Of a stretch of DNA of 64,000 nt, positions 9,580 to 40,944 are shown piece after piece. Under the pieces are notes generated by a model. It was not told where the DNA came from. It saw only the letters and a program-made list of their open reading frames with translations, and ran no database searches. Numbering within the stretch: the first letter of the stretch is position 1; each line of letters begins with the position of its first letter. This DNA is from Chloroflexota bacterium. GTDB lineage: Bacteria > Chloroflexota > Anaerolineae > UBA4142. Location of the stretch: contig JACRPR010000040.1 in NCBI GenBank assembly GCA_016223105.1, positions 18,940-82,939 on the forward strand, written 5' to 3'. A program made the translations under genes and the position numbers.

Positions 9580-9587
9580 TACTGAAC

Positions 9588-9628
9588 CGTGATGCGTGAT
9601 GCGTGAATTTTCACGCATCACGCATCAC
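9588..9628. repeat. Family-E hairpin
   Basis: CGTGATGCGTGATGCGTGAATTTTCACGCATCACGCATCAC, a near-perfect hairpin just upstream of kduD. A related copy lies at 27701-27740 and a half copy at 21250-21265. Confidence 0.8.
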
Positions 9629-9648
9629 TCAAGAATGGAAATTACAAA

Positions 9649-11134: not shown

Positions 11135-11209
11135 GTTTGTTAGTTGGATAGTTGCATAGTTGCCTGCAAACTATCCAACTATGCAACTATTCAACTTGGA
11201 GAAATGACG

Positions 11210-17400: not shown

Positions 17401-17602
17401 TCGTGATGTGTCCGTGCGCGTCGGTCGCGATGAGCAAGCCGCACCCGCACGAGCAGTACGGACAAATCGTCGCTTGTGAACCGACGGATTTGTGGAGCGG
17501 AGATTTTTCTCCACCGCTATCGGCATGCGTCGCGCCGGGAAGCATCAACGCGCCGCCGAGCGCGGCGGACGTTTGCAGGAACTGACGCCGGGAAAGTTTC
17601 AT
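14495..17602 (-). CDS. fdnG: Formate dehydrogenase alpha subunit, selenocysteine-containing, Tat-exported
   Basis: ORFs 17033..17602 and 14495..17020 are in one frame, joined by TGA at 17033-17035. The junction reads 'LEHQARI-U-HSATVAGLSPTFGRGAMTNDW', matching the FdnG 'ARVUHGPTVASLAPTFGRGAMTN' motif. Tat signal 'SRRQFLQ'. 'CPYCSCGCG' 4Fe-4S motif. Confidence 0.9.
17005..17035 (-). promoter_or_regulatory. UGA(Sec) codon plus candidate SECIS hairpin
   Basis: On the mRNA: UGA CAC AGC GCG ACG GUG GCUGGUCUCAGCC. A 5-bp stem GGCUG/CAGCC with loop GUCU begins about 14 nt after the UGA. Confidence 0.55.
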
Positions 17603-19853: not shown

Positions 19854-20432
19854 ATGTTGGATTCGTCTCTCCGCGATTGGGTCAACCTTCAATCGCATCA
19901 AAACATCAACACCTGTTTCACCTGCGCGAAATGCACGGCGGGCTGTCCGGTCGCGTTCGCGATGGAGTTTGGTCCGCATCGCATTTTGCAAATGGTGCGC
20001 TTTGGAATGAACGACGCCGCGCTCGCGAGCCGCGATATTTGGTTGTGCGCGGGATGCGAAACCTGCGCGACGCGTTGCCCGAACGATGTGGACGTTGCCG
20101 CGCTGATGGACGCGTTGCGCCAAATTTCGCTTGCCAAAAAATCGCGCAACCCCGCGCGCGATATCGCCGACTTTCATCGCGCGTACTTGCTCCTCATCAA
20201 ATTGTTCGGACGCATGCACGAGGCATCGCTGATGATTCTGGTCAAACTGATCACGCGTGATCTGCTCGCGGATATGGGCGCGGGTGTGCAGTTGGTTTTG
20301 AAAGGAAAAATTCCGATTGTGCCGGAACGCATTCGTGGGACAGGTGAAGTGAGCAGAATGTTGAACGCGGAAAAACGTAATTCGCGCGAAGCGTTCGTAA
20401 TTCGTAATTCGCAATTCGGAAATCAAAAATGA
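19854..20432 (+). CDS. hdrC: Heterodisulfide reductase subunit C (HdrC-like)
   Basis: RBS GGAGGA. Two ferredoxin-like motifs, 'CFTCAKCTAGCP' and 'CAGCETCATRCP'. Its stop overlaps the hdrB start (ATGA). Confidence 0.85.
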   Translation: MLDSSLRDWVNLQSHQNINTCFTCAKCTAGCPVAFAMEFGPHRILQMVRFGMNDAALASRDIWLCAGCETCATRCPNDVDVAALMDALRQISLAKKSRNPARDIADFHRAYLLLIKLFGRMHEASLMILVKLITRDLLADMGAGVQLVLKGKIPIVPERIRGTGEVSRMLNAEKRNSREAFVIRNSQFGNQK

Positions 20433-21241
20433 AATTCGCCTATTACCCAGGATGCAGTTTGCACGCGACCGGGTTGGAGTACGACCAATCCACCCGCGCC
20501 GCGTTGTGCGCGCTCGATGTCGAACTCGACGAACTGCGCGATTGGAATTGTTGCGGCGCGTCGTCCGCACACGCACTCGATGCGAACGCCGCGATCCTTC
20601 TCGCCGCGCGCAATCTCGCGCTCGCGCAACGCGCGCATCGCGATGTGATCGCGCCGTGCGCCGCGTGTTTCAATCGGCTCAAAGTTGCGGAGCATATTCT
20701 CAAAACCGATTCGACGCGCCGCGTCGAAATCGAACGCGCGCTCGATTTTTATTACGCCGACGCGACCCAGATTCTCAATCCGATTGACCTGGTCGTGAAT
20801 CACATCGGTTTGCCACGCGTGCGCGCCGCCGTGAAAAATCCGCTCACCGATTTGCGCGTCGTCCCACACATCACGCAATTCGACGATCCCGAACATCCGC
20901 GCGCGCTCGATCAACTCCTCTCCGCCATTGGCGCACAGCCATGCGAGTGGGCGGATGCGACGCATTGTTGCGGCGGCTCGCTCTCGCTGACGCGCGCGAA
21001 CATCGTCATCAAACTCGTGGATGACCTGGTCGCGCACGCGCGCGATGTCAACGCGCAAGCCATCGTTACCGCGTGCCCGCTTTGCCAAATCAATCTCGAA
21101 ATGCGTCAGACGCGCGCGGACAAATTGCCGATTGTGTATTTCACCGAATTGATGGGACTCGCGTTCGGATTAAAAGAATCGCGCAAGTGGTGGGGCAAGC
21201 ATCTCATCAATCCGCGCGAATTGGTGAGCCGGTATCAGTGA
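20429..21241 (+). CDS. hdrB: Heterodisulfide reductase subunit B (HdrB-like, two CCG domains)
   Basis: 'YYPGCSL...NCCGAS...APCAACF' and '...HCCGGSL...TACPLCQ' are duplicated CCG (Cys-rich) motifs. Confidence 0.85.
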   Translation: MKFAYYPGCSLHATGLEYDQSTRAALCALDVELDELRDWNCCGASSAHALDANAAILLAARNLALAQRAHRDVIAPCAACFNRLKVAEHILKTDSTRRVEIERALDFYYADATQILNPIDLVVNHIGLPRVRAAVKNPLTDLRVVPHITQFDDPEHPRALDQLLSAIGAQPCEWADATHCCGGSLSLTRANIVIKLVDDLVAHARDVNAQAIVTACPLCQINLEMRQTRADKLPIVYFTELMGLAFGLKESRKWWGKHLINPRELVSRYQ

Positions 21242-21271
21242 AACGTAAAACGTGATGCGTGATGGGAGCAT

Positions 21272-21354
21272 GTCATTGCGAGGAGCGATTTTTGCGACGA
21301 AGCAATCTCCGAACGGTGCGTGGGGATTGCTTCGCACAGAACGCTCGCAATGAC
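21272..21354. repeat. Family-A palindromic element, copy 3
   Basis: GTCATTGCGAGGAGCGATTTTTGCGACGAAGCAATCTCC...GGGGATTGCTTCGCACAGAACGCTCGCAATGAC, between hdrB and the next gene. Confidence 0.85.
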
Positions 21355-21366
21355 AAGAGTCGCGAT

Positions 21367-22758
21367 ATGTTAAACGATTCAACTAACCAACTATCCAACC
21401 ATCCAACTAACCAACCAACCGGCGCAGTCCTGGTTGTCGGCGCGGGGATTGGCGGAATGCAAGCATCGCTCGATCTCGCGGACGCCGGTTTTAAGGTGTA
21501 CTTGCTCGACCGCGCGCCCGCGATTGGCGGACGAATGGCGCAACTCGACAAAACATTTCCGACGAACGATTGCGCGATGTGCATCATGTCGCCGAAACTC
21601 GTCGAGACCGGACGCCATCTCAACATCGAAATCATCACGACCGCCGATTTGGAAAAAGTTGAAGGCGAGCCGGGAAATTTCACCGCGACGATTCGCGAGC
21701 ATCCGCGTTACGTTGATCTTTCGAAATGCACCGGGTGCGGCGATTGCGCGGCGAAATGTCCGATCACTTTGCCGGATGAATTTAATACCGGGATGAGCGC
21801 GCGCAAAGCGATTTACAAATTGTATCCGCAAGCGATTCCGAACGCGTTCGCGATTGAAAAGCGCGGCATCGCGCCGTGTCGCGACGCGTGCCCCGCGCAT
21901 CAACGCGCGATGGGTTATATCGCGCTGATTCGCGAACGCCGGTTCGCCGACGCGTATCGCGTGATCAAAGAAGACAATCCGTTTCCCTCGATTTGCGGAC
22001 GCGTCTGCATCGCGAAATGCGAGACCGCGTGCAATCGCGCGCAGTTCGATGCGCCGGTTGCGATTCGCGATTTGAAACGTTTCGTCGCGGATTGGGCGTG
22101 GAATCAGTCAGCAGTCAACAGTCAACAGTCAACAGTCGTCAGTCAACAGTCGTCAGTCAATTCCCAATTACCACTTACCAATTACCAGGTCGCAATCATT
22201 GGCTCCGGTCCCGCCGGGATGACCTGCGCGGCAGACCTGGTGCGACAAGGTTATGGCGTTACCGTGTTCGAAGCGTTGCCGGTCGCGGGCGGAATGATGC
22301 GCGTCGGCGTGCCGAATTTTCGCTTGCCGTACGACCGCGTGCAAAAAGAGATTGACGACATTCTCGCGCTTGGCGTCGAACTAAAATTGAACACGCGCAT
22401 TGATGATGTCGAAAAACTTTTCGTGGATGGATTCGATGCGGTCTTCTTCGCGGCTGGTTCACATCGCGCGCGCAAACTGCCGATCCCCAACGCGAATCAT
22501 CCCGACGCGATCCTCTCGTTGGATTTGTTGCGCGATACGAGTTTGGGAATTTCAGAATCAGGGAATCCCCAATCTGAAATCTGCAATTTGAAATCTAAAG
22601 TTGCGAATCGCCGCGTCCTGGTTTTGGGCGGCGGCGCAGTCGCGGTGGACGCGGCGACGACCGCGCGACGACTCGGCGCGTTCAGCGTTGCGATGGCTTG
22701 CCTCGACGCGCGCGCGACAATGCCCGCGACAAAAGAGGATTTGGCGCAAGCTGACTAA
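21367..22758 (+). CDS. HdrL-like giant fusion, N-terminal part (QmoA-like HdrA FAD domain, ferredoxin, NfnB/GltD Fe-S and first Rossmann domain)
   Basis: ATG at 21367 lies after the repeat. 'VVGAGIGGMQASLDLADAGFKVYLLDR...GGRMAQLDKTFPTNDCAMCIMSPK' is HdrA-type. 'CTGCGDCAAKCP'. 'CRDACPA...NPFPSICGRVCIAKCETACNR' and 'VAIIGSGPAGMTCAADL' are GltD/NfnB-type. It ends at an in-frame TAA (22756-22758) in the middle of a conserved domain. Confidence 0.8.
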   Translation: MLNDSTNQLSNHPTNQPTGAVLVVGAGIGGMQASLDLADAGFKVYLLDRAPAIGGRMAQLDKTFPTNDCAMCIMSPKLVETGRHLNIEIITTADLEKVEGEPGNFTATIREHPRYVDLSKCTGCGDCAAKCPITLPDEFNTGMSARKAIYKLYPQAIPNAFAIEKRGIAPCRDACPAHQRAMGYIALIRERRFADAYRVIKEDNPFPSICGRVCIAKCETACNRAQFDAPVAIRDLKRFVADWAWNQSAVNSQQSTVVSQQSSVNSQLPLTNYQVAIIGSGPAGMTCAADLVRQGYGVTVFEALPVAGGMMRVGVPNFRLPYDRVQKEIDDILALGVELKLNTRIDDVEKLFVDGFDAVFFAAGSHRARKLPIPNANHPDAILSLDLLRDTSLGISESGNPQSEICNLKSKVANRRVLVLGGGAVAVDAATTARRLGAFSVAMACLDARATMPATKEDLAQAD

Positions 22759-23013
22759 GAGGGCATTGCGATTTATCCGTCGCGATCGTTCAAACGCGTC
22801 GTCGTCGAAAATGGAAAAATCACCGGCGTCGAATGTGTCAACGTCAAATCGTTCGCGTTCGATAAAGATGGACGACTTGCGCTCGAAACACATCCGAACA
22901 CCGAACACCTTCTCGAATGTGACACGGTAATTTTCGCGATTGGGCAAGGTCCCGATCTCGCGCCGATTCAAAATTCGCAAGGCGCGCAACAAACGCCGCG
23001 GCGCACGCTCGCG

Positions 23014-25968
23014 GTGAATCCCGAAACGCTTGCAACCGGGCGACCTGGTTTGTTCGCCGGCGGCGACGCGGTTACCGGCGTTGGTTTCATCATTGACGCG
23101 ATTGCCGCCGGACATCGCGCCGCAAATTCGATTCAGACATATCTCAGTCGTCGGTCAACAGTCAACAGTCAACAGTTACCAATTACCAATTCAGTCGTGA
23201 AATTATCGCGCGACGAAATCACCGCGCGCGTTGAAACCGGCAAGGTAACAAAACGCGAGCGTGTCGAACGGAAATGGATTGATGCCGGGACGCGCGTGCA
23301 CTCGTTCGAAGAATTTGCATTGCCGATGTCGGAAGAGGAAGCGGTCGCGGAGGCGCAACGCTGTCTCGAATGTGGTGTGTGTTCCGAGTGCCTCGAATGT
23401 GTGTACGCGTGTCGCGCTGGCGCGGTCAATCACGCGGCGATTGAAGCGACGCGTGAACTGCAAGTCGGCGCGGTGATTCTCACACCTGGTGTCGAGCCGA
23501 TTGATTTACGTGCCCCTTCGACTTCGCTCAGGGTGGGCTATCGTCCCGAGTACGGTTACGGGCGTTACCCGAACGTCGTTACGTCGCTCGAGTTCGAACG
23601 CTTTTTGTCCGCAACCGGTCCGACCCAGGGTGTTGTCGCGCGACCGAGCGATGGCGCGCATCCGAAAAAAATCGCGTGGATTCAATGCGTTGGTTCGCGC
23701 GATTGCGCGCGCGACCAGGGCTATTGCTCTTCGATTTGTTGTATGTACGCGACGAAAGAAGCGGTCATTGCGCGCGAGCATAGCGCGGAGATCGCGCCGA
23801 CAATTTTTTATCTCGACATTCGCGCGTACGGCAAAGAGTTCGACCGCTACATCGAGCGCGCGAAAAACCAGGGCGTCCGTTACATTCGCTCGATGGTCAG
23901 CGCGATTGAACCTGGTGCGAACGGAAATTTGAATGTGCGTTACGCGCTCGACGATGGACCCAAGACCGAAGAATTTGAAATGGTCGTGTTGTCGGTCGGC
24001 GTGAAACCGAGCGCGGAAACGCGCGCGCTCGCGCAACGCCTCGGCATCGCGTTGAATGAGTACGGTTTCACGGAATCCATTTCGTTCGCGCCAACCGCGA
24101 CCTCGCGACCTGGTATTTTTGTCGCGGGCACATTCCGCGAACCGAAAGATATTCCAGAGACGGTCATCGAAGCATCCGCCGCCGCCGCGTGCGCGTCGCA
24201 ATTGCTCGCGTCCGCGCGTGGAACGCTCGCGCGCGTCAAAACGTATCCGCCCGAACGCGACGTGGCGGAAGAAGAACCGCGCGTCGGCGTGTTCGTGTGT
24301 CATTGCGGCATCAACATTGGCGGAGTCGTGCGCGTGCCGGAAGTCGTCGAGTTTGCAAAGACGTTGCCGGGTGTCGTGTACGCGGAACACAATCTCTACA
24401 CCTGTTCGCAAGATACGCAAGCGCGTATCAAGGCGCGCATCGAAGAAAATCATCTGAATCGCGTCGTCGTCGCGAGTTGCACGCCGCGCACGCACGAGCC
24501 CTTGTTCCAGGATACATTGCGCGAAGCGGGATTGAACCCTCACCTGTTCGAACTCGCGAATATCCGCGAGCAAGACGCGTGGGTGCATCGCGGCGATCGC
24601 GACGCGGCGACGCGCAAAGCGCAAGACCTGGTCGCGATGATGGTCGCGCGCGCGCAACACGACTCGCCGTTGTATCGCCTCGTGTTCGACATCAATCCGC
24701 GCGCGCTCGTGATCGGCGGCGGATTTGCCGGAATGACTGCGGCGTTGACGATTGCGGAACAGGGGCACGATGTTTTCCTGGTCGAGCGCGACGCCGAGCT
24801 GGGCGGACACGCGCGGCACATTCAGTTTGCAGTGAACGGTGAACAGTCAACAGTCAACTGTGTGGATGTGCAAGCAATGTTGCACGACACGATTGCGCGT
24901 GTGATGGAACATCCGCGCGTGCACGTTTACACGCGCGCAGAAATCAATGATGTTGCCGGTTATGTCGGACGATTTGTTTCGCGGATTCACCTCGCGGATG
25001 AAGACGCGAACATCGCGCTCGATCACGGCGCAATCGTCGTCGCGACCGGCGCGCGCGCCGCGACGCCGCGCGAGTATTTGTATGGCATGGACAACCGCGT
25101 GATCACTCAGCAAGATTTGGAATCGCTGATCATCAATCGAAAATCAGAAATCGAAAATCAAAAATCAATCGTGATGATTCAATGCGTCGGCTCACGCGAC
25201 GAATCGCGCGCGTACTGCTCGCGCATTTGCTGTCAACAGGCAATCAAGAACGCGCTCAAGTTGAAGGAACTGAATCCGCAAACGCAAATCGTCGTGTTGT
25301 ATCGCGACCTGCGCGCGTACGGCTTCAAAGAAGATTTGTATCGCCGCGCGCGCGAGCAAGGTGTTTTGTTTCTGCCGTACGAATTGGATGCCAAGCCGAA
25401 CGTCGCAATCGCGAATGACAAACTGCGCGTTACTGCGCGCGCCGCGTTCGCTCCGAATGGAAAAATCGAACTCGAACCCGACCTGGTTGTGTTGAGCGCG
25501 GGCATCGAGCCGAACGATAACGCGCCGCTCGCGCAACTCTTAAAAGTGCCGCTGACCCAGGATGGATTTTTTCTCGAAGCGCACGCGAAACTGCGCCCGC
25601 TCGATTTCGCCGCCGATGGAATTTTTCTCGCCGGACTCGCGCACTCGCCGCGCGCGCTCGACGAATCGATCGCGCAAGCGCAAGGCGCGGCGATTCGCGC
25701 CGTCGCGCTCTTGTCACAAAAACAACGCGAAGCCGTCGCGACCGTCGCGACCGTGAACGAACGCCTGTGCGCGGGATGCGGCTTGTGTGTCGAGATGTGT
25801 CCGTACGGCGCGCGCGCGCTCGACGCGGACGCGCACATCGCGCAAGTGAACGCGGCGCTGTGCCAGGGTTGCGGCGCGTGCGTAACCGCGTGTCCGAACG
25901 GCGCATCGCAACAACGCGCGTTCGAAATGCCGCAAGTGTTTGCGATGATTGAAAACGCAGTCGCGTAA
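23014..25968 (+). CDS. HdrL-like giant fusion, C-terminal part (end of NfnB/GltD domain, HdrA middle region, complete second HdrA)
   Basis: Same frame as 21367..22758. Homology is continuous from codon 22759 ('EGIAIYP...DTVIFAIGQ...GLFAGGDAVTG'). No ATG/GTG/TTG occurs in frame before the GTG at 23014. 'QCVGSRD...YCSSICCMY', 'VFVCHCGINI', 'ASCTPRTHE', and a terminal 2x[4Fe-4S] ('CAGCGLCVEMCP', 'CQGCGACVTACP'). Confidence 0.8.
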   Translation: MNPETLATGRPGLFAGGDAVTGVGFIIDAIAAGHRAANSIQTYLSRRSTVNSQQLPITNSVVKLSRDEITARVETGKVTKRERVERKWIDAGTRVHSFEEFALPMSEEEAVAEAQRCLECGVCSECLECVYACRAGAVNHAAIEATRELQVGAVILTPGVEPIDLRAPSTSLRVGYRPEYGYGRYPNVVTSLEFERFLSATGPTQGVVARPSDGAHPKKIAWIQCVGSRDCARDQGYCSSICCMYATKEAVIAREHSAEIAPTIFYLDIRAYGKEFDRYIERAKNQGVRYIRSMVSAIEPGANGNLNVRYALDDGPKTEEFEMVVLSVGVKPSAETRALAQRLGIALNEYGFTESISFAPTATSRPGIFVAGTFREPKDIPETVIEASAAAACASQLLASARGTLARVKTYPPERDVAEEEPRVGVFVCHCGINIGGVVRVPEVVEFAKTLPGVVYAEHNLYTCSQDTQARIKARIEENHLNRVVVASCTPRTHEPLFQDTLREAGLNPHLFELANIREQDAWVHRGDRDAATRKAQDLVAMMVARAQHDSPLYRLVFDINPRALVIGGGFAGMTAALTIAEQGHDVFLVERDAELGGHARHIQFAVNGEQSTVNCVDVQAMLHDTIARVMEHPRVHVYTRAEINDVAGYVGRFVSRIHLADEDANIALDHGAIVVATGARAATPREYLYGMDNRVITQQDLESLIINRKSEIENQKSIVMIQCVGSRDESRAYCSRICCQQAIKNALKLKELNPQTQIVVLYRDLRAYGFKEDLYRRAREQGVLFLPYELDAKPNVAIANDKLRVTARAAFAPNGKIELEPDLVVLSAGIEPNDNAPLAQLLKVPLTQDGFFLEAHAKLRPLDFAADGIFLAGLAHSPRALDESIAQAQGAAIRAVALLSQKQREAVATVATVNERLCAGCGLCVEMCPYGARALDADAHIAQVNAALCQGCGACVTACPNGASQQRAFEMPQVFAMIENAVA

Positions 25969-25988
25969 AACGTAAAATGGAGTACGCA

Positions 25989-26405
25989 ATGTCGGACAAT
26001 AATCACGAACCTCGCATCGTCGCGTTTCTGTGTAATTGGTGCACGTACACCGGCGCGGATTTAGCCGGCACATCGCGTCTGCAATATCCGCCGAACGTTC
26101 GCATCATTCGATTGATGTGTAGTGGCGCGGTGGATCCGGTGTATGTGTTAAAGCCACTGCTCGACGGCGCGGATGGCGTGTTGATTGGCGGCTGTCATCC
26201 CGGCGATTGTCATTATCAATCCGGGAATTACAAAGCGCGCCGGCGTTTCGCGGTTTTGCAAGAAACGCTCGACGAACTGGGTTTCGATAAAGACCGTGTG
26301 TGGTTGCGCTGGATTAGCGCGAGCGAAGGCGCGCAATTCGCGGACACAATTCGAGAAATGACCGCGATGTTGAAAAGCAAGTTGGATAGTGCGATAGTTG
26401 GTTAG
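25989..26405 (+). CDS. MvhD/FlpD-like (methyl-viologen-reducing hydrogenase delta subunit family)
   Basis: 'EPRIVAFLCNWCTYTGADLAG...IRLMCSGAVDP...GADGVLIGGCHPGDCHY' is the MvhD signature. ATG at 25989 is preceded by GGAG; the alternative ATG is at 25977. Confidence 0.85.
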   Translation: MSDNNHEPRIVAFLCNWCTYTGADLAGTSRLQYPPNVRIIRLMCSGAVDPVYVLKPLLDGADGVLIGGCHPGDCHYQSGNYKARRRFAVLQETLDELGFDKDRVWLRWISASEGAQFADTIREMTAMLKSKLDSAIVG

Positions 26406-26483
26406 TTGGTTAGTTGCCTAGTCGCGATTGATGGCAACTATCAAACTATCAAACCATACAACTATTCAACTAGGAAACAAACG

Positions 26484-26969
26484 ATGCCAGGGCTGAATCA
26501 AGTTGATGTTAAACACATCGAAAGAATTTTGAATATCGTGTTGGACGACGCGCGTCCGCCGGTGGGACGGTGTCGTTTGCTGTCGAGCGGATTCGCGCCG
26601 TATCACACTTTGCAACTCGCGGAAAATGTTTCTGGATTCAAAGGATGTATCGGTTGCGGCAATTGCATTGACGCGTGCCCAATGCTCGCGCGCGAACCGC
26701 GTCGCCGCGCGCGCACGCCGCAACGCACCTCGTTCGCGCTCGAAGCGTTGGTCGCGGACGATTGCGACCGGTGCGATAACTGTGTCCTGGTTTGTCCGCA
26801 AGTGGACACGACCATCAAACAGTACATCGTCAATACCAGGATGGTCGAGGGGATGGCGCGACTCGTAAAAAATTTAGAGCGCGAAGAATTTTTGATTTTC
26901 GATTTCTGGTTTACAAATTCTGGAGTCGAGCGTTTACGCGGTTATTCGCCCGGACCAACAACCCGCTAA
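26484..26969 (+). CDS. 4Fe-4S dicluster ferredoxin-domain protein
   Basis: 'CIGCGNCIDACP' and 'CDRCDNCVLVCP'. ATG at 26484. The last ~15 codons are supplied by a family-C repeat. Confidence 0.65.
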   Translation: MPGLNQVDVKHIERILNIVLDDARPPVGRCRLLSSGFAPYHTLQLAENVSGFKGCIGCGNCIDACPMLAREPRRRARTPQRTSFALEALVADDCDRCDNCVLVCPQVDTTIKQYIVNTRMVEGMARLVKNLEREEFLIFDFWFTNSGVERLRGYSPGPTTR

Positions 26970-26981
26970 AGCGTCGAGTCC
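26922..26981. repeat. Family-C element, single unit
   Basis: GGAGTCGAGCGTTTACGCGGTT...CAACAACCCGCTAAAGCGTCGAGTCC. Confidence 0.85.
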
Positions 26982-27017
26982 AAGAATCGTAAATCGAAAA
27001 TCGAAAATGGAGTTGTG

Positions 27018-27698
27018 ATGGACGACCAGAAATTCATCAACATTTTCATAATGGACAAACACTATCGCGTCCCGGCATCGCTGACGATTATGCGCGCGTT
27101 CGAGTACGCCGGGTACAAGATGATTCGCGGCGTGGGTTGTCGCGGCGGATTTTGCGGCGCGTGCGCGACGGTCTATCGAATGAGCGGCGATAGCAAATTG
27201 TCCGTCGCGCTCGCATGCCAAACCGTCGCGCAAGACGGGATGCGGCTCGCGCAAATTCCATCGTTCCCCGCGAACAAGATGCGGTACGATTTCGCGTCGC
27301 TCGATGCGGACGGCGCGCGCTTGCTGGAAATTTATCCCGAACTGGAATTGTGTAAAGGATGCAACACTTGCACCAAAGCATGTCCCCAGGAATTGCAAGT
27401 GATGGAATATGTCGCGGCAGGTTTGCGCGGCGACATCGCGCAAATGGCGGATTTGAGTTTCGATTGTATCGTGTGCGGATTGTGCACCGTGCGTTGTCCC
27501 GGCGAACTCGCGCCGTACAACATCGCACTGCTCGCGCGGCGCATTTACGGCGCGCGCCTCGCGCCACGCGCGCGGCATCTTGAATCGCGCGTCGCCGAAA
27601 TTCGCGCGGGCAAATGGGATGCGGCAGTGCGCGAGTTGAAAACGTTGCCGCTGGATGAGTTGAAGCGGCGGTACAACGAACGCGAGATTGAAACGTAA
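27018..27698 (+). CDS. SdhB/FrdB-like iron-sulfur protein (2Fe-2S plus two 4Fe-4S-type motifs)
   Basis: 'GCRGGFCGACATV' resembles the SdhB 2Fe-2S motif. 'CKGCNTCTKACP' and 'CIVCGLCTVRCP'. GGAG lies 5 nt upstream of the ATG at 27018. Confidence 0.7.
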   Translation: MDDQKFINIFIMDKHYRVPASLTIMRAFEYAGYKMIRGVGCRGGFCGACATVYRMSGDSKLSVALACQTVAQDGMRLAQIPSFPANKMRYDFASLDADGARLLEIYPELELCKGCNTCTKACPQELQVMEYVAAGLRGDIAQMADLSFDCIVCGLCTVRCPGELAPYNIALLARRIYGARLAPRARHLESRVAEIRAGKWDAAVRELKTLPLDELKRRYNEREIET

Positions 27699-27700
27699 AA

Positions 27701-27740
27701 CGTGATGCGTGATACGTGAATTTCACGCATCACGTATCAC
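27701..27740. repeat. Family-E hairpin, copy 2
   Basis: CGTGATGCGTGATACGTGAATTTCACGCATCACGTATCAC. Confidence 0.8.
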
Positions 27741-27754
27741 TGTCAAGGTGTACG

Positions 27755-28807
27755 ATGGACTTTACTTTGTCCGAAGAACTGCAAATGATTCGCGACATGG
27801 CGCGCGATTTTGTAATGAACGAGTTACTGCCGATTGAGCGCGAGGTGCTCGTGCGCGACGCGCAACCGGGCGGCGCGCGTCCTGAGCAAAGTCGAAGGAT
27901 GCCGATTCCGCGTGAGAAAATGGTCGCGCTGAAAACGAAAGCGGTCGAGCAAGGGTTGTGGGCGATGAACGCGCCGGAGGAATTTGGCGGCGGCGGGTTG
28001 AGCGCGCTGGGCGGATGTTTGGTCGCGGAAGAACTTGGCAAGTCGTTTGTGGATTTCGATTTTGGTGATGTGCCGCCGCAATTGTTCGACGCGAACGCCG
28101 AGCAACGCGAGAAATTTTTGAAACCGATAATTGCCGGTGAAAAAGAAATTGCATTTGCCGCGCGCGAACCGGACGGCGATGAAATCACCACGCGCGCGAC
28201 GCACGATGCCGAGGGCTGGGAATTGAACGGCATAAAAATCGCGGTGCAAGCCGATCTGTTTTTGGTCATCGCGCAAACGGACGCGGGCGCGACGTGCTTT
28301 ATCGTCGAACACCAAGTTACCCAAGACGGAAAATTGGTTTTGCAAAAAACGCGCGTGCCCGATTCAAACGTGCTGGGCGAAATCGGTGGCGCGTTCGCGC
28401 TCGGCAAAAAATATCGGAACGCAAATTTGGTGCGCGCAGGGGCGCGCAAGGTTGGCGTTGCATCGCGCTTGTTGGAACTGAGCGCGCAGTACGCGCGCGA
28501 TTGGAAAGCGTTGGGACAATCGCTCGCGGTGCGCCCCGCCGTGCAACGCTGGCTCGCGGAAATGGCAATCGAAATTGACGCGGCGCGCTGGCTCATTTAT
28601 CGCGCGGCAGTCGCGAATGATGCGAACCAGGACGCCAAAGCCGACGCGATGCGCGCGCACTTGTTCGCCTCCGAAACCGCGCAACGCGCGCACGACCGCA
28701 CGATTGAAATTTACGGCGGACCCGCGCCAATGATGCCGCGCGTCAATCGCGATGAACAAATTTTAGAACTCGAACGATTTCAAATTGCGAATAGTTTGAT
28801 GCAATAA
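27755..28807 (+). CDS. Acyl-CoA dehydrogenase family protein (short, divergent)
   Basis: 'FTLSEELQMIRDMARDFVMNELLP', 'GLWAMNAPEEFGGGGL' and 'RWLIYRAA' follow the ACAD N-terminal, middle and C-terminal pattern. 350 aa. Confidence 0.75.
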   Translation: MDFTLSEELQMIRDMARDFVMNELLPIEREVLVRDAQPGGARPEQSRRMPIPREKMVALKTKAVEQGLWAMNAPEEFGGGGLSALGGCLVAEELGKSFVDFDFGDVPPQLFDANAEQREKFLKPIIAGEKEIAFAAREPDGDEITTRATHDAEGWELNGIKIAVQADLFLVIAQTDAGATCFIVEHQVTQDGKLVLQKTRVPDSNVLGEIGGAFALGKKYRNANLVRAGARKVGVASRLLELSAQYARDWKALGQSLAVRPAVQRWLAEMAIEIDAARWLIYRAAVANDANQDAKADAMRAHLFASETAQRAHDRTIEIYGGPAPMMPRVNRDEQILELERFQIANSLMQ

Positions 28808-28875
28808 TTTTCGATTGCCGATTTTCAATTTTCGATTCTGAAAAACGCAAATCGAAAATAACCCGGAGGTGTGCG

Positions 28876-29964
28876 ATGACAACTCGAATGATGTTGAATG
28901 TGAAAAACAATGACACACTCGACACGGTGCGCGATTTTTTGAAATCGCTGTTGGAATTGCGCGTTGTGGAAATGTTGCTCGTGCCGCTCGAAGTGCCGAC
29001 CGCCGACCGCGTAACGCCGATTCTGGTGCAAGACCCGCAAGACCTGAACACGGCGAACCCGCTCGCGCCGGTGATGCGCGTCAACACCGCGGCGGTCATT
29101 GCGCGTTTGCAACGCGGCGACGGCGCGCATCGCATCGGCGCGGTTCTGCGTCCGTGCGAATTGCGCGCGACGATTGAACTCGCCAAGTACGGGCGCGTCA
29201 ATCTCGACCGGCTGATGCTCATCGGCATTGATTGTATGGGCACGTACGAGTCGAACGATTACGCGCAAATCGCGCGCGCCTCCACGCGCAATCAATCGCC
29301 GACCGATGAAATGTTGCGCTGGACGCGGCAAGGTCCGATCGCGCCGTATCGTTTGCGAAACGCGTGCCAAATGTGCGAACAGTTCATCCCCGAAAATGCC
29401 GACATCGCGATTGACCTGGTCGGCATGAATGTGCGCGAGCGTTTGATGATCGAAGCGCGCGATGATCTCGCGGAAAATTTGCATTTGCCGGTCGGCGATG
29501 TGAGCGGACGCGATAAAGCGGTGGCGCGTTTGCATTTGATTCGCCATCATCGCCGCGAAAAAGCGACGACCGACGCGATGCAAATGTTGAAAGATATTCC
29601 GGCATTGCTGGGTCTCATCGCGCCGTGCACGGCGTGCGCGGAATGTGTCGAGTCGTGCCCGTTCTGCGATACAAACGCGTTCACGCCCAAGCCCGCGCAA
29701 GAAGCGCACACCGATCGTCTGCGCGATTGGCCCTCGGGCGAAACCTGGTCGGCGCGTGGACACGCGCTTGGACCGATTGGCGATTTGATCGCGTGGGGAC
29801 GCCGCGCCGCGTCGTGCGTGCAATGCGGAATGTGCGAATCGGCTTGCCCGCGCGATGTGCCGCTCACCGCGTTGCAAAGCGTCCTGGGTCGGCGCGTGCA
29901 AGAAGAATTTCATTACATCCCAGGTCGAAGCGTTACCGAAAAATTGCCGTGGGCGGTGGCATAA
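28876..29964 (+). CDS. FrhB/FdhB-family (F420 hydrogenase/dehydrogenase beta-like) Fe-S protein, paralog 1
   Basis: 'RPCELRATIEL...LIGIDCMGT', 'C..C..FIPENADIAIDLVG', and C-terminal 'CTACAECVESCP...CVQCGMCESACP'. RBS GGAGG. Confidence 0.55.
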   Translation: MTTRMMLNVKNNDTLDTVRDFLKSLLELRVVEMLLVPLEVPTADRVTPILVQDPQDLNTANPLAPVMRVNTAAVIARLQRGDGAHRIGAVLRPCELRATIELAKYGRVNLDRLMLIGIDCMGTYESNDYAQIARASTRNQSPTDEMLRWTRQGPIAPYRLRNACQMCEQFIPENADIAIDLVGMNVRERLMIEARDDLAENLHLPVGDVSGRDKAVARLHLIRHHRREKATTDAMQMLKDIPALLGLIAPCTACAECVESCPFCDTNAFTPKPAQEAHTDRLRDWPSGETWSARGHALGPIGDLIAWGRRAASCVQCGMCESACPRDVPLTALQSVLGRRVQEEFHYIPGRSVTEKLPWAVA

Positions 29965-30054
29965 ATTCGTAATTCTTAATTCTAAATTCGTAATTCAAAA
30001 TCGCGCGAATTGAATTGCGAATTCCGAATTCCGAATTAAGAATTTGAGGTCGCT

Positions 30055-31173
30055 ATGACAACTCGCGGTTTGTGGCAAGTCAACAACAACGACCCGCTCG
30101 GCGCGACGCGCGATTTTCTGCGCGCGTTGCTCGACCAAAAAATTGTGGCGGCGTTGCTCGTGCCGATGCACGGCGCGCGCGATGCGGTGATGCCCGCGCT
30201 CGTCAAACATTCGTCGCGGCTCGACCGCGCGGATCCGTTCGCGCCGGTGATGGCGTTCAATTCCGCGCGCCTCGTCGCGATGCTCACGCGCGAGAGCATC
30301 AATGTAAAAATTGGCGTTGTGCTCCGCGCGTGTGAAATTCGCGCGCTGATCGAACTCGTGAAATTTCATCAAGCGAAACTCGACAACACGGTGATAATCG
30401 GCGTGGATTGTTTTGGCACGCTCGATTTTGCGAAATACCAGGACGCGCGCGATGCAATGCCGGATTTGCCCGCGCGATTTTTCGCGCAAGCGCGCAACGG
30501 CAACGTCGCGGGACTCGCGTGGCGCGACGCGTGCGCGACGTGCGAATATCCGACGCCAGCGCACGCGGATATCGCGATCGGTTTTATCGGCATAGACAAT
30601 TCGCAAATGCTCGTTATCGAAACGCGTCCAGAGATCGCGGAGCAACTCGATCTGCACGCGGATTCGACCGGCGCGGAAGCGCGCAACGCGGTGCTGGCGA
30701 ATTTGATCACCCTGCGAACCACCGCGCGCGATGAAACGATCAAGCAATTTCACGATGCGATGCGCGCGAACGGTGGCGCGGCGAGTTATTTCGCCAACTG
30801 TCTTGAATGTACCAATTGCATGAACGCGTGTCCGATTTGTTATTGCAAAGAATGTTTCTTTCGCACCGCGAACGCGGAACACGCGCCGCGCGAATTATTG
30901 CGCTCCGCCGAACGGCACGGCGCGCTCACGATGCCACCCGACGCGGTGTTGTTTCAACTCACGCGCCTCAATCACATGGCGACGAGTTGCGTCGGATGCG
31001 GAATGTGCCAAGCCGCGTGTCCGCAAAACATTCCACTCACCGCGCTGTTTCGCGCGGTCGGCGCGCGCGCGCAGAAAATTTTTGATTACGCACCAGGTCG
31101 CGATGTGAATGAGAAACCGCCGTTTATGGAATTTCGGCGGGACGAGTTGTTGCAGATTGGGGAAAGCCGGTAA
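30055..31173 (+). CDS. FrhB/FdhB-family Fe-S protein, paralog 2
   Basis: Collinear with 28876..29964: 'MTTRxxxxVxNNDxL', 'RACEIRALIEL...IIGVDCFGT', 'ADIAIGFIG' and 'CLECTNCMNACPICYC...CVGCGMCQAACP'. Confidence 0.55.
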   Translation: MTTRGLWQVNNNDPLGATRDFLRALLDQKIVAALLVPMHGARDAVMPALVKHSSRLDRADPFAPVMAFNSARLVAMLTRESINVKIGVVLRACEIRALIELVKFHQAKLDNTVIIGVDCFGTLDFAKYQDARDAMPDLPARFFAQARNGNVAGLAWRDACATCEYPTPAHADIAIGFIGIDNSQMLVIETRPEIAEQLDLHADSTGAEARNAVLANLITLRTTARDETIKQFHDAMRANGGAASYFANCLECTNCMNACPICYCKECFFRTANAEHAPRELLRSAERHGALTMPPDAVLFQLTRLNHMATSCVGCGMCQAACPQNIPLTALFRAVGARAQKIFDYAPGRDVNEKPPFMEFRRDELLQIGESR

Positions 31174-31217
31174 ATGATTTTCGATTTTTGATTTTAGATT
31201 TGACGATTGTGCGAGAC

Positions 31218-31278
31218 CTGGATTCGACGCTTTAGCGGGTTGTTCGCTTGCGATCGAACCGCGTAAACGCTCGACTCC
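31218..31278. repeat. Family-C element, single unit (inverted)
   Basis: CTGGATTCGACGCTTTAGCGGGTTGTTCG...CCGCGTAAACGCTCGACTCC. Confidence 0.85.
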
Positions 31279-31338: not shown

Positions 31339-32682
31339 ATGCCAAACAGCGCACTCGTAATCGGCGGCGGTATCGCCGGAATTCAAACCGCGCTCGATAT
31401 CGCGGATGCCGGGTTTCATGTGTATCTCGTCGAAAAAGAACCGAGCGTCGGCGGGCGAATGGCGCAACTCGACAAAACATTTCCGACGCTCGATTGTTCC
31501 GCGTGCATCCTCACGCCGAAAATGGTGGATGTCGCGCGCCATCCCAACATCGAACTCATTACGTACTCTGAAGTTTGCAATATCACAAATGGCGCAAGTG
31601 ACTTTTACGCGACAATCAAAAAGAAACCGCGTTACGTTGACACCAACAAATGTACCGGTTGCGGCAGTTGTGCGGAGGCGTGTCGTTTGAAGGGACGCGT
31701 GACCGATACGTTCAACGCGGGGATGGGCAAACGTTCCGCGATCTATGTTCCGTTTCCGCAAGCCGTTCCGCTCAAGTACACCGTGGATCCGACGCAATGC
31801 GTTTATCTCACGCGCGGCGTGTGCGGCAAAACGTTTTTGTGCAAAGACGCGTGCAAAGCGGACGCGATTGATTTCACGCAAAAAGAAGAAATCGTCGAGT
31901 TGAATGTCGGCGCGATTGTCGTCGCGACCGGGTTCGATCCGTTCGACGCCGCACTCAAACCGGAACTGGGTTACGGAATTTATCCGAACGTCATCACGTC
32001 TCTGCAATTTGAACGCTTGTCGTCCGCGTCTGGTCCGACTGCCGGAAAAATTTTGTTGAACGGCAAAGAACCGCGCGAGGTCGTGTTCGTGCAATGCGTC
32101 GGCTCGCGCGATGTGACGACCGGCAATCTGTATTGCTCGCGCGTTTGCTGTATGATTACCGCGAAGCACGCGCACCTGGTCAAAGATAAAATTCATGACG
32201 CGAACGTTACGATTTTTTACGCGGACATGCGCGCGTTCGGCAAAGGGTTTGAAGAATTTTACGACCGCGTGCGCGCGGAAGGCGTCAACTATCGGCGCGG
32301 ATACGTTTCCGAAATTTACGCCGCCGGCGGGCAGACGCCCAAACGCGATGGCAAACTTGTCGTGCGTTCCGAAGACACGCTCATCGGCAAGCCCATCGAA
32401 ACGACTGCCGATCTGGTCGTGTTGAGCGTCGGTCTCGTGCCGCGCGTCGAAACGAACACGCTCGCGCAGATTTTACAGCTCACAAATTCTAGCGACGGTT
32501 TTCTGGCGGAGGCGCATCCGAAAATGTTGCCGGTGGACACAAAAATAAACGGTGTTTACCTCGCGGGCGTCGCGCAAGGGCCGAAAGATATTCCCGACGC
32601 GGTCGCGCACGCGAAGGCGGCGGCGAGCGCGGCGATTGTGCGCTTACGCAGTCGTCAGTCGTCAGTCGCCAGTCAACAGTGA
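31339..32682 (+). CDS. QmoA-like short HdrA (FAD domain only)
   Basis: 'VIGGGIAGIQTALDIADAGFHVYLVEKEPSVGGRMAQLDKTFPTLDCSACILTPKM', 'CTGCGSCAEAC' and 'VQCVGSRD...YCSRVCCM'. It lacks the N-terminal CHCG domain and the C-terminal ferredoxin. Confidence 0.85.
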   Translation: MPNSALVIGGGIAGIQTALDIADAGFHVYLVEKEPSVGGRMAQLDKTFPTLDCSACILTPKMVDVARHPNIELITYSEVCNITNGASDFYATIKKKPRYVDTNKCTGCGSCAEACRLKGRVTDTFNAGMGKRSAIYVPFPQAVPLKYTVDPTQCVYLTRGVCGKTFLCKDACKADAIDFTQKEEIVELNVGAIVVATGFDPFDAALKPELGYGIYPNVITSLQFERLSSASGPTAGKILLNGKEPREVVFVQCVGSRDVTTGNLYCSRVCCMITAKHAHLVKDKIHDANVTIFYADMRAFGKGFEEFYDRVRAEGVNYRRGYVSEIYAAGGQTPKRDGKLVVRSEDTLIGKPIETTADLVVLSVGLVPRVETNTLAQILQLTNSSDGFLAEAHPKMLPVDTKINGVYLAGVAQGPKDIPDAVAHAKAAASAAIVRLRSRQSSVASQQ

Positions 32683-32716
32683 ACAGTGAACTGTTGACTG
32701 ACTACTTGGAGTTAAA

Positions 32717-33835
32717 ATGTTCGACACGGAATCACTCGTCCAACAATACGAACTGACCGCATGTATTCAATGCGGCAAATGCACCGGCGGTTGTCCGATC
32801 GCGCTCAAGAGCGCGTTGAATCCGCGCGCACTCGTCTATCAAATGTTACGCGGCGAAGAATTTGAACTCGTGTCGCGCGGCGAGTTGTGGGATTGCACGA
32901 CGTGCGCGACGTGCGGCTTGCGTTGTCCCAAAGGCGTCAAAGCGGTTGACCTGATTATCGCGTTGCGCGCGCAGTGGATCGAAAGCGGAAAAATTCCGAC
33001 GACGCTTCGCGCACCGCTCACCGCGACGTTGAACCAGGGCAACCCGCTCGTCTTGCCACGCGAAGATCGCTCGCTGTGGGCGGATGGCTTGAACGTCAAA
33101 AATGTCGCGGATGGCGCGGGGATCGCAATGTTCACTTGTTGCGAAAACGCGTACGACCCGCGCGTGCAAGCGATGCCGCGCGCGCTCGTGAATTTGTTAC
33201 GCGCGGCGAACCAGGATTTCGGTACGCTCGGTCTCGACGAGCAATGTTGCGGCAGTGAAGTGCGGCGCATCGGCGAAGCCGGTTTGTTCGAATACTTGCG
33301 CGACGACAACCTCGAAAAATTTCGCGCCGCGCGCGTATCGAAAATGGTAACAACTTCGCCGCATTGTTTCAACGTTTTCAAAAACGAGTACGGCAAACAC
33401 GCAATCCCGGTTGAACATTACACGCAAACGCTCGCGCATTTGATCGCGGACGGCGCGCTGAAATTTTCAAAAAAGTTTCAAGCGACGATCACGTACCAAG
33501 ACCCGTGCTTTCTCGGCAAGCAAAATGGAATTTACGATGAGCCGCGCGCGATTTTGAAAGCGATCCCCGGCGCAAAGTTTGTCGAGATGGATCGCTCGCG
33601 CGAACGAAGCGTATGTTGCGAGGGCGGCGGCGGGCGAATGTGGCTCGAAGGCACGAATAGCCAAGTCCGACTCGCGAACGATCGCATCGCGCACGCGCTC
33701 GACACCGGCGCGAACATTCTCGCGACCGCGTGCCCGTTCTGTTTTCTTACCTTGAGCGACGCGGTGATCGCGACCGGCAACGAAGAAAAAATCAAGGTGA
33801 TGGATATTCTCCAAATTGCGAATGCGGCAATCTGA
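32717..33835 (+). CDS. HdrD-like Fe-S protein (fused HdrC-like ferredoxin plus two CCG domains)
   Basis: 'CIQCGKCTGGCP', 'CTTCATCGLRCP', then 'FTCCENAY...CCGSE' and 'DPCFLG...VCCEGGGG...TACPFC'. Confidence 0.8.
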   Translation: MFDTESLVQQYELTACIQCGKCTGGCPIALKSALNPRALVYQMLRGEEFELVSRGELWDCTTCATCGLRCPKGVKAVDLIIALRAQWIESGKIPTTLRAPLTATLNQGNPLVLPREDRSLWADGLNVKNVADGAGIAMFTCCENAYDPRVQAMPRALVNLLRAANQDFGTLGLDEQCCGSEVRRIGEAGLFEYLRDDNLEKFRAARVSKMVTTSPHCFNVFKNEYGKHAIPVEHYTQTLAHLIADGALKFSKKFQATITYQDPCFLGKQNGIYDEPRAILKAIPGAKFVEMDRSRERSVCCEGGGGRMWLEGTNSQVRLANDRIAHALDTGANILATACPFCFLTLSDAVIATGNEEKIKVMDILQIANAAI

Positions 33836-33854
33836 ATTATGATTTAGGATTGTG

Positions 33855-33915
33855 TTGGATTCGACGCTTTAGCGGGTTGTTGGTCAAGCGAGTAACCGCG
33901 TAAACGCTCGACTCC
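33855..33915. repeat. Family-C element, single unit (inverted)
   Basis: TTGGATTCGACGCTTTAGCGGGTTGTTGG...CCGCGTAAACGCTCGACTCC. Confidence 0.85.
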
Positions 33916-33983
33916 ATCACTTGCGTTCCGCATAATCGGATTTTGCGCGCACACCAAATCATAAATCGAAAATCGAAAATGCT

Positions 33984-35915
33984 ATGAAATCCCAAATCGG
34001 CGTTTACATTTGTCATTGCGGTTTGAATATCGCGAACACGGTGGACGTGGAGCAGGTGCGCGAGTTTGCGCGCATCTTGCCGAACGTCGCGATCGCGCGC
34101 AACTATACGTATATGTGCTCCGACCCAGGTCAAGCGTTGATCACGAACGACATTCGCGACCTGGGATTGACGCACGTCGTCGTCGCGTCGTGTTCGCCGC
34201 GGATGCACGAGCCAACTTTTCGCGCGACGATCCATAAAGCCGGGTTGAATCCGTACGTGTTAGAGATGGCGAACATTCGCGAGCAATGTTCCTGGGTTCA
34301 TTCGGATCGCACGCTCGCGACACTCAAGGCGATGGATTTGATCGCGTCGGCGGTTGCGAAGGTCGCTCTGCTCGTGCCATTGCAAGAGCGCGAGGTCAAG
34401 GTCACTCAATCTGCGCTCGTGATCGGCGGCGGTATCGCGGGAATGACTGCCACGCTCGATATTGCGAACGCCGGCTTCCAGGTTTGTCTCGTCGAAAAGC
34501 AAACACACCTCGGCGGACGCGTCGCGCAACTCGACACAACATTCCCAACCCAGGAACGCGTCGCCGATTTGCTCGCGCCCGTGTTGCGCGCGATAACGAC
34601 GCATCCCAACATTCGCGTCATTACGAACGCGGACGTTGAAAAAGTGGATGGGTTCATCGGCAATTTTCGCGCGACGATTCGCGCGCGCCCGACGTTCGTT
34701 GACGCGATGAAATGCGACGCGTGCGGGAAATGCGTGGACGCGTGCCCGGTGAATGTGCCGGACGCGTTCGACGCGAATCTCACGACGCGCCGCGCGATCT
34801 ATCGCGCGCCGGATGCGCGATTCGTGATCGACGCGCGCGCGTGTTCGTTTGTGCAGGATCGCGTCTGCCGATCCGATCCACGTTGCGCGGCGGTGTGTGA
34901 TCGCAACGCGATTGATTTTTCGCAAACCGAAAATCTGGTCGAGATCAACATCGGCGCGATCATCGTCGCGACCGGTGCGGCAACTTTCGACGCGACGAAA
35001 AAACCGGAACTGGGATTCGGCACGTACTCGAACGTGATCACCTCGTTGCAATTCGAGCGGCTTGCCGCGCGCCAGGAATTGCAATCGGTGAAGGATGTCG
35101 TGTTCGTCTCCTGCGTCGGCTCGCGCGATGCGACGACCGGCAATACCTATTGCTCGCGCGTCTGTTGTATGGTCAACGCGAAACAAGCGCGGCGCATCCA
35201 GGAAAAATTTCCCGACGCGCGCGTAACTGTGTTTTACGCGGACGTGCGCGCGTTCGGCAAAGGGCACGAAGAATTTTACGACGCGGTTCGCAAAACCGGC
35301 GTGCGCTATCGGCGCGGGTACGTGTCCGAAATTTTCGCCGCAGGCGGGCAGACGCCCAAACGCGATCAAAAATTGATCGTGCGCGCGGAAGACACGCTGA
35401 TTCAAAAACCAATCGAAGTTTCTGCCGACCTGGTTGTGCTGGGAATCGGAATGACGCCGCGCGCGGAGACGAACGAAATCGCGAATGTGCTGGGCTTGCC
35501 GCGTTCGGGCGATGGATTTTTGTTGGAGATTCATCCGAAACTGCGCCCGGTCGAAACCGCGGTGGATGGAGTTTTTCTCGCGGGCGCGTGCCAGGGACCA
35601 AAAGACATCGTGGACACGATCGCGCAAGCGCGCGCGGCGGCATCGTCCGCGTTCGCGTCGTTGTGTCGCGGGCAAGTGAAAATCGAATCCGCGACCGCGC
35701 GCGTGGATGAAGAGGTGTGCGCGGGTTGCGGCTTGTGCGTCGCGACGTGTCCGTACGGCGCGCCCGCATTGATCGCGCGCACGGGCACTGCGCGCGTAAA
35801 CCAGGTCTTGTGTAAAGGATGCGGCGCGTGCGAAGCCGCGTGTCCATCGAAAGCGATCCAGGTGATGCAATGCACACCGCGCCAAGTGCTTGCCCAGATC
35901 GCGGTGTTGGCGTAG
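33984..35915 (+). CDS. hdrA: Full-length HdrA-like flavoprotein (N-terminal CHCG domain, FAD domain, C-terminal 2x[4Fe-4S])
   Basis: 'GVYICHCGLNI', 'ASCSPRMHE', 'LVIGGGIAGMTATLDIANAG', 'SCVGSRD...YCSRVCCM', 'CAGCGLCVATCP' and 'CKGCGACEAACP'. The usual 'DKTFPTxDCxxC' site reads 'DTTFPTQERVADLL'. Confidence 0.85.
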   Translation: MKSQIGVYICHCGLNIANTVDVEQVREFARILPNVAIARNYTYMCSDPGQALITNDIRDLGLTHVVVASCSPRMHEPTFRATIHKAGLNPYVLEMANIREQCSWVHSDRTLATLKAMDLIASAVAKVALLVPLQEREVKVTQSALVIGGGIAGMTATLDIANAGFQVCLVEKQTHLGGRVAQLDTTFPTQERVADLLAPVLRAITTHPNIRVITNADVEKVDGFIGNFRATIRARPTFVDAMKCDACGKCVDACPVNVPDAFDANLTTRRAIYRAPDARFVIDARACSFVQDRVCRSDPRCAAVCDRNAIDFSQTENLVEINIGAIIVATGAATFDATKKPELGFGTYSNVITSLQFERLAARQELQSVKDVVFVSCVGSRDATTGNTYCSRVCCMVNAKQARRIQEKFPDARVTVFYADVRAFGKGHEEFYDAVRKTGVRYRRGYVSEIFAAGGQTPKRDQKLIVRAEDTLIQKPIEVSADLVVLGIGMTPRAETNEIANVLGLPRSGDGFLLEIHPKLRPVETAVDGVFLAGACQGPKDIVDTIAQARAAASSAFASLCRGQVKIESATARVDEEVCAGCGLCVATCPYGAPALIARTGTARVNQVLCKGCGACEAACPSKAIQVMQCTPRQVLAQIAVLA

Positions 35916-40873: not shown

Positions 40874-40874
40874 T

Positions 40875-40944
40875 GTCATTGCGAGCGAAGCGAAGCAATC
40901 CCCGCGCGACGGATTGGAGATTGCTTCACTTCGCTCGCAATGAC
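40875..40944. repeat. Family-A palindromic element, copy 5
   Basis: GTCATTGCGAGCGAAGCGAAGCAATCCCCGCG...GGAGATTGCTTCACTTCGCTCGCAATGAC, immediately after the atpI stop. Confidence 0.9.

Follow-up and report, generated by a model that had tools for sequence, protein, structure and literature searches.

An internal TAA codon in the otherwise intact hdrL gene of a Chloroflexota bacterium: a candidate recent nonsense mutation

The interrupted hdrL reading frame

Does an in-frame stop codon within an otherwise intact gene indicate that the gene has recently been lost, that the assembled sequence is flawed, or that the cell tolerates the break? This question is raised by the hdrL gene in a 64,000-nucleotide (nt) stretch of DNA from a Chloroflexota bacterium (assembly GCA_016223105.1, contig JACRPR010000040.1, positions 18,940 to 82,939 of the forward strand), which is referred to below as the window. 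An initial annotation of the window had described the hdrL frame as continuous from 21367 to 25968 except for a TAA at 22756-22758, and had offered a recent nonsense mutation, an assembly or sequencing error, or stop codon readthrough as explanations. The first two of these stood up to the present analysis, whereas the evidence speaks against readthrough. On balance, we consider it probable that hdrL was lost in this strain, or in some members of its population, through a real and very recent nonsense substitution.

Translation of frame 1 from 21367 to 25968 (+) yielded 1534 codons with exactly two stops, one of which is the terminal TAA of hdrL at 25966-25968 (+) and the other a TAA at codon 464 (22756-22758, +) in the context GCT GAC TAA GAG GGC. 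The frame is open over 1533 codons with the latter as its sole interruption, just as first described. The sequence at the stop reads MPATKEDLAQAD*EGIAI, and the frame appears in the list of open reading frames (ORFs) as two entries, 21259..22758 and 23014..25968. When orthologs were searched against this DNA with tblastn, a single high-scoring segment pair of 77-78% identity ran straight across the stop, indicating that hdrL is a coding frame rather than a chance ORF. Inspection of the segment between 22759 and 23013 revealed no in-frame ATG, GTG, or TTG, as also reported initially, and the only possible restarts near the stop are non-canonical ATT codons. The first canonical in-frame start is GTG 23014, which has no Shine-Dalgarno (SD)-like motif upstream; such motifs are present at several neighboring gene starts (e.g., 19854, 27015, 28876, 30055, 32717, and 36988). 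Initiation at GTG 23014 would cost 85 residues of the NAD(P)H domain, which bears out the earlier claim that a division into two genes would lose part of the NAD(P)-binding region. The parts of hdrL are as follows.

21367..22755 (+): first 463 codons, comprising the HdrA N-terminal FAD/4Fe-4S part, Fer4_20, and, from the GltD/NfnB-like module, the start of the FAD-binding region and the N-terminal half of the NAD(P)H Rossmann domain
22756..22758 (+): in-frame TAA, codon 464, the only break in the 1533-codon frame
22759..25968 (+): remaining 1069 codons and the natural TAA terminator, encoding what is left of the NAD(P)H domain and of HdrA, along with the FAD 'GGD' motif, another HdrA-like module, and, at the C-terminus, a 2x[4Fe-4S] region; orthologs align up to 25965
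23014..23016 (+): GTG, first canonical in-frame start after the stop, without an SD-like motif

The identity of the gene as an HdrA-NfnB-HdrA (HdrL-like) fusion, also proposed in the initial annotation, is supported by several lines of evidence. Upstream of the stop, Pfam recognizes FAD_oxidored/Fer4 followed by Fer4_20 (2.6e-21) and Pyr_redox_2, which is the GltD/NfnB signature, while downstream of it lie the remainder of Pyr_redox_2, another FAD module, and the C-terminal 2x[4Fe-4S] domain. Residues ~170-600 align end to end with NfnB (4YLF_B, 2e-64), NfnI (5JCA_L), and GltD (2VDC_G), with E values of 1e-44 to 1e-64, and in the alignment of these solved proteins the stop column corresponds to the Glu before 'EG' in '...MPA....EAEEEG...'. 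The NfnB-like module is thus cut within its NAD(P)H Rossmann domain, with the FAD 'GGD' motif downstream of the stop. Because a 448-aa HdrA-like paralog matches both flanks of the NfnB insert (21424-21900 and 23374-24165) and again the C-terminal third (24703-25734), the architecture is best described as HdrA(N)-NfnB-HdrA(C)-HdrA2. The locus has the HdrA-like FAD/FeS modules, a GltD/NfnB-like module with Fer4_20, and mvhD directly downstream, and departs from the HdrL type in that the TAA at 22756-22758 interrupts what should be one polypeptide.

HdrL has been described as an HdrA/glutamate-synthase-like fusion protein of large size that has an NAD(P)H site and whose gene is co-located with mvhD (PMC2702500; PMC5947623), with mvhD following the hdrL loci (PMC2702500). 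Its NAD(P)H-linked (con/bi)furcating redox activity has only been proposed (PMC2702500; PMC5947623). The HdrL proteins of Desulfobacterium autotrophicum HRM2 and Syntrophobacter fumaroxidans are likewise large HdrA-like proteins with a GltD/NfnB-type NAD(P)H module (PMC2702500; PMC5947623), and they resemble the gene in the window in being soluble, in having mvhD directly after them, and in clustering with hdrB/C-like and FeS genes. Unlike these, the gene in the window is broken by a TAA, has two HdrA-like modules, and contains clade-specific low-complexity linkers. Some of the D. autotrophicum HdrL use selenocysteine (Sec; TGA), which is unrelated to the TAA described here. The NfnB/NfnI large subunit and GltD (4YLF_B, 5JCA_L, and 2VDC_G) have the Fer4_20 clusters, the FAD and NAD(P)H Rossmann motifs, and 'MPA....EEG' in common with the NfnB-like module in the window; however, they are separate subunits, whereas the latter is inserted in an HdrA scaffold and has two repeat-derived insertions that the solved structures lack. 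To our knowledge, a biochemical function has been shown for no HdrL. The protein family itself is very large, with 7986 proteins at E <= 1e-50, and intact members of ~1500 aa number in the thousands, the majority from Chloroflexota. The best 120 of these are nearly all uninterrupted and ~1450-1590 aa in length, the two shorter ones being contig-truncated pieces, and within this set the homologs from named sources are labeled Chloroflexota, Anaerolineae, and similar, with a best identity of 78%. A scan of genome contigs found no genome nearer than 76% identity.

What relatives carry at the stop and the age of the break

The stop column was read in an alignment of the 120 best homologous proteins and 81 homologous DNA loci, and in none of the 120 proteins or 81 loci is it a stop. 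Sense residues were found throughout, with 74 proteins having Glu, 24 Gln, 18 Asp, and four Ala. The expectation of a Glu codon in the initial annotation was therefore only partly correct: Glu is the majority residue and GAA occupies the column in the closest relative (L089, of which only the N-terminal part is available), but Gln is found in the 15 nearest full-length homologs (about 73-78% identity), and the column is variable. At the DNA level, the closest full-length loci have either CAA (L082, L087) or CAG (including L088), while the more distant loci mostly have GAA or GAG; A, D, R, H, K, and G are tolerated in the column as well. Since the neighbors carry CAA, CAG, or GAA, with a single step leading from such codons to TAA, one base change is sufficient to explain the stop. 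CAA>TAA is as parsimonious as GAA>TAA, and the ancestral codon may have been CAA (Gln). The initial annotation had also considered that orthologs might be naturally split at this position, with a proper start and ribosome binding site for the downstream half. No ortholog is divided there into parts with their own starts: of 120 shorter homologs in the database, one alone (P0143, which is L089) terminates close to this column, and a start immediately behind the column is found in none of them.

The sequence downstream of the stop exhibits no decay or relaxed constraint. Mean identity to the clade is 0.775 downstream vs 0.789 upstream, with the same pattern among the clade members, and of the columns that are near-invariant in the 120 homologs, all 247 are kept downstream, while one deviation in 21 occurs upstream. 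There are no frameshifts in hdrL, and even the three slippage-prone heptamer tandem arrays downstream of the stop are all still in frame. The earlier description of the remaining 3.2 kb as intact is thus upheld. For the N-terminal part, the comparison between the window and L089 gave a synonymous divergence (dS) of 0.33 and an omega of 0.19, from which we conclude that purifying selection acted on hdrL during almost its entire history. As there is no decay downstream, the stop is either very young, not real, or not effective. Around the stop, private substitutions of the window exceed the median for the gene only slightly and do not stand out, and for this reason we rejected a recombination patch, a collapse of paralogs, or a similar local anomaly. 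Ordinary bacterial nonsense pseudogenes (annotated as 'internal stop' by PGAP) likewise have a single stop at a position where orthologs have a sense codon, no downstream start with a ribosome binding site, and a stop codon that is used normally elsewhere. Unlike these, hdrL has no further decay whatsoever, which would make it extremely young if it is real.

Six heptamer/octamer arrays are found within the gene.

21380-21420, 22105-22187, and 22571-22596 (+): arrays upstream of the stop, in frame
23154-23191, 24830-24862, and 25135-25168 (+): arrays downstream of the stop, in frame

They encode low-complexity linkers (e.g., QSTVNSQQ, LPITN, and SEICNLKS) located at gaps relative to the solved NfnB structures. 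At these sites, the heptad-like peptides of sister sequences differ from those of the window and vary in length, indicating that the linkers are hypervariable and slippage-prone.

The closest relative, L089, deserves separate consideration. It is a 1777-bp JGI contig (JGI 3300024300, Ga0233420_10028017) that is 85% identical in nucleotide and 89% identical in amino acid sequence to the first 463 codons in the window, and it has an in-frame TAA of its own at 1738-1740, 7 codons upstream of the stop in the window. There the sequence reads MPATK*DLDHVDEECIAI (also given as MPATK*DLDHVDEEC), and the contig ends 37 nt after this TAA. Its last 10 codons contain 5 private changes vs about 0.1 per codon elsewhere, a 5-fold excess, and three of the changes are to T, including the G>T that creates the TAA and another G>T that turns the Gly of the near-invariant 'EG' into Cys. 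No canonical start or SD follows the stop in either the window or L089. These features fit a contig-end artifact in a low-quality tail, but also a genuine stop followed by decay, or an independent second inactivation of the gene. As the two stops occupy different codons, they were not inherited.

Explanations for the TAA

If the TAA is real, a single-base substitution would have changed CAA (Gln) or GAA (Glu) to TAA in the otherwise intact hdrL of this lineage, and the resulting allele may be fixed or may be a population variant only. Translation would end at codon 463, producing a truncated protein in which the NAD(P)H domain is reduced by half and the FAD 'GGD' motif and the two HdrA modules are missing, and the remaining 3.2 kb would have no usable start. 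hdrL would then be a very young pseudogene (null allele) here, and neither a recoded nor a split gene. The data show the stop and its uniqueness at this codon among relatives, the normal use of TAA as a terminator (see below), and the lack of a restart signal, an RNA element, or downstream decay; we infer that the base is genuine and no error of the consensus, and that the HdrL protein is not made. The nearby premature TAA in L089 may indicate that hdrL is dispensable in this sublineage, for which it is weak support. Three observations weigh against a real nonsense allele. No reads or second assembly were found over the site and consequently a real mutation is not separable from a consensus error; the flawless 1069 downstream codons fit an error or continued translation equally well; and a second TAA just 7 codons away in the sister lineage would be an unlikely coincidence for independent random hits.

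The main rival is that the TAA arose as a sequencing, polishing, or consensus error, or as a minority allele picked by the assembler, in which case the organism would have an intact 1533-codon hdrL with Gln or Glu at position 464. We regard this as a serious explanation, albeit an unlikely one. It would account well for a gene that is perfect but for one base, in which invariant residues, frame, and identity are all as well preserved downstream as upstream, and it draws further support from the public assemblies of relatives, where broken hdrL or frhB genes are common. Two of these have frameshifted hdrL pieces (P0129 and P0133) on contigs of 939 kb and 181 kb, and a third (L081) has a split frhB-like gene. 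The position of the L089 stop within a contig tail, among an excess of private and mostly >T changes, points in the same direction. However, the remainder of the window has no sign of poor assembly. The other genes of the ~20 kb syntenic cluster are all intact relative to their orthologs, and an independent Logan contig of 1456 bp from SRR12113394, found via the frhB-like gene, is 100% identical to 29781-31236, indicating that the same strain exists in public reads, though this contig does not extend over the stop. Moreover, substitution errors are rare inside a long contig, and the errors seen in relatives are indels. Several searches for an independent copy of the site were negative. Exact-protein look-ups of both hdrL fragments and of mvhD yielded no match, nor did an exact DNA pattern with N at the stop in metagenome contigs; the only matches to a degenerate codon pattern were the clade members L087 (CAA) and L088 (CAG), which both encode Gln there; protein searches centered on the stop found no same-strain fragment; and a full-text literature search for SRR12113394 returned no paper.

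It is improbable, in our view, that the break is tolerated or programmed as a property of the window/L089 sublineage, either by UAA readthrough with a near-cognate Gln, Glu, Lys, or Tyr tRNA or by termination-reinitiation. The observation that two sister lineages at a dS of 0.33 each have a TAA inside the same 8 codons is the only hint of such a mechanism, and the lack of visible decay downstream would be expected from it. The column is also variable and sits at the C-terminal end of the conserved MPA....EEG motif, its variability suggesting a surface position. Like readthrough, reinitiation at ATT 22765 or ATT 22771, behind the SD-like AAGAGGG at 22757-22763, is possible but unsupported; GAGG does precede ATT 22771 by 8 nt, yet it simply represents the conserved Glu-Gly codons. 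The two stops are at different codons and not inherited, while L089 has neither an SD nor a canonical start after its stop and combines a Gly>Cys change at the near-invariant 'EG' with a noisy contig end. Likewise, no other database protein ends or starts here. TAAG is an efficient terminator context in E. coli, and TAA terminates hdrL itself as well as its neighbors. RNA folding of 141 nt around the stop was no better than for shuffled sequences (z = -0.23), and there was no Rfam match at the site, even at E <= 1 on 22500-23100; a readthrough or SECIS-like RNA at the stop was therefore rejected. There is no tRNA, and hence no suppressor tRNA, in the window. Known recoding would further call for a stop that is conserved in relatives and for TGA or TAG, and the earlier statement that TAA is neither a Sec (TGA) nor a pyrrolysine (TAG) codon is correct. 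Still less probable is the specific proposal that the loop after 'MPATK' in the HdrL NAD(P)H domain is a tolerated or programmed break point in the window/L089 sublineage, with HdrL made via readthrough or as two polypeptides. Were this true, HdrL would be a recoded or split flavin-based electron-bifurcation enzyme.

The window does include a genuine case of recoding. The fdhA gene, encoding the alpha subunit of a molybdopterin formate dehydrogenase with a Tat signal (RRQFLQ), is located at 14495-17602 (-) and has a selenocysteine TGA at 17033-17035 in HQARI-U-HSATV, which divides it into 189 aa and 841 aa in the ORF listing. Judging from this gene, the organism uses Sec. As in hdrL, the in-frame stop of fdhA is inside a conserved redox enzyme of the same organism. 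In contrast, Sec recoding involves TGA, a conserved catalytic position, and a SECIS hairpin, whereas the hdrL stop is a TAA at a variable position that is shared by no ortholog and has no associated structure.

TAA is used as a normal terminator in the window. A rough gene call based on codon usage gave 57 genes, of which 25 end in TGA, 19 in TAA, and 13 in TAG. UAA is read as Gln in known reassignments of other organisms. A genome-wide reassignment of TAA to an amino acid such as Gln, the aligned residue in the closest clade, is effectively refuted here by this stop usage (about 19 of the 57 called genes), by ortholog alignments that end exactly at the TAA of hdrL and of four downstream operon genes, and by the absence from the window of any other broken gene in the form of long same-frame ORF pairs divided by TAA.

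With regard to annotation, we suggest that the locus be recorded as hdrL with an internal stop (pseudogene or candidate sequencing error) and not as two genes, and that metabolic reconstructions count on a functional HdrL-MvhD module only once the base has been verified. As neither the gene family nor the arrangement of the operon nor the kind of event is new, the finding is an ordinary one that bears mainly on annotation. If the TAA is real, it would constitute a natural knock-out of a widespread and biochemically uncharacterized Chloroflexota HdrL complex and would suggest that the complex is dispensable in this strain. Wider interest would arise only if the break were tolerated or programmed and common to the sister lineage.

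The hdrL operon and its surroundings

The genes surrounding hdrL are the following.

19854..20432 (+): hdrC-like 2x[4Fe-4S] gene (Pfam Fer4_17/Fer4_8), with an ATGA overlap with the next gene
20429..21241 (+): hdrB-like gene with two CCG domains (Pfam CCG x2), 84% nt identity to the L089 gene upstream of hdrL
25977..26405 (+): mvhD (FlpD), intact (Pfam FlpD, E = 7e-54), 90-93% identical to orthologs, beginning 8 nt after hdrL
26484..31173 (+): rest of the syntenic cluster, intact in comparison with orthologs
to 26969 and 27015-27698 (+): two ferredoxin-like genes of this cluster
to 28807 (+): acyl-CoA-dehydrogenase-like gene of this cluster
28876-29964 and 30055-31173 (+): two FrhB-like genes of this cluster
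31339..35915 (+): paralogous Hdr-like genes, namely HdrA-like (31339-32682), HdrBC-like (32717-33835), and HdrA-like (33984-35915)

The Hdr-like paralogs at 31339-35915 could buffer the loss of hdrL. Immediately upstream of hdrL (19854-21241), the hdrC-like gene is separate from the hdrB-like gene in both the window and L089, whereas the 77%-identity clade (L081-L085) has one fused HdrCB of 403-412 aa. The fused proteins are similar to the genes in the window only in their N-part, and the N-part of the hdrC-like gene is 45-49% identical to them. The partner upstream of hdrL has apparently been replaced in the window/L089 sublineage, judging from these comparisons. We also considered whether this arrangement represents a second broken gene, which was rejected, as both genes are complete and joined by the ATGA overlap and a separate hdrB is also present in L089.

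Directly downstream of the Hdr-like cluster is a V/A-type ATPase operon (I, C/AC39, A, and B subunits; 38996-47220), followed by a low-GC island at 48000-55101 (0.46 vs about 0.57). The island encodes an Eco57I-like restriction-modification methylase (48701-51871, -) and an SNF2/PLD-domain helicase (51961-55101, -) and is probably a horizontally acquired defense locus.

The intergenic spacers exhibit a recurring organization in which a tandem array of a 7-9 nt unit is followed by an array of its reverse complement. These array pairs form long near-perfect hairpins (z = -4 to -9.1), with a unit sequence that differs at each locus.

9582-9634, 11136-11200, 26376-26476, 29960-30048, 42080-42144, 43540-43610, 47200-47322, and many more: spacer hairpin arrays, from a repeat scan

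A strict count gave 13 period-7 arrays vs 0.1 in shuffled sequences. The hairpin arrays had no Rfam match and we found no paper on such arrays in Chloroflexi; they are also present in the closest hdrL clade (L081, L082, L087, and L088). Longer tandem repeats are located inside ORFs at 56468-56599 (periods of 18, 36, and 54 nt) and 59392-59840 (42, 30, and 60 nt), which probably encode repeat proteins.

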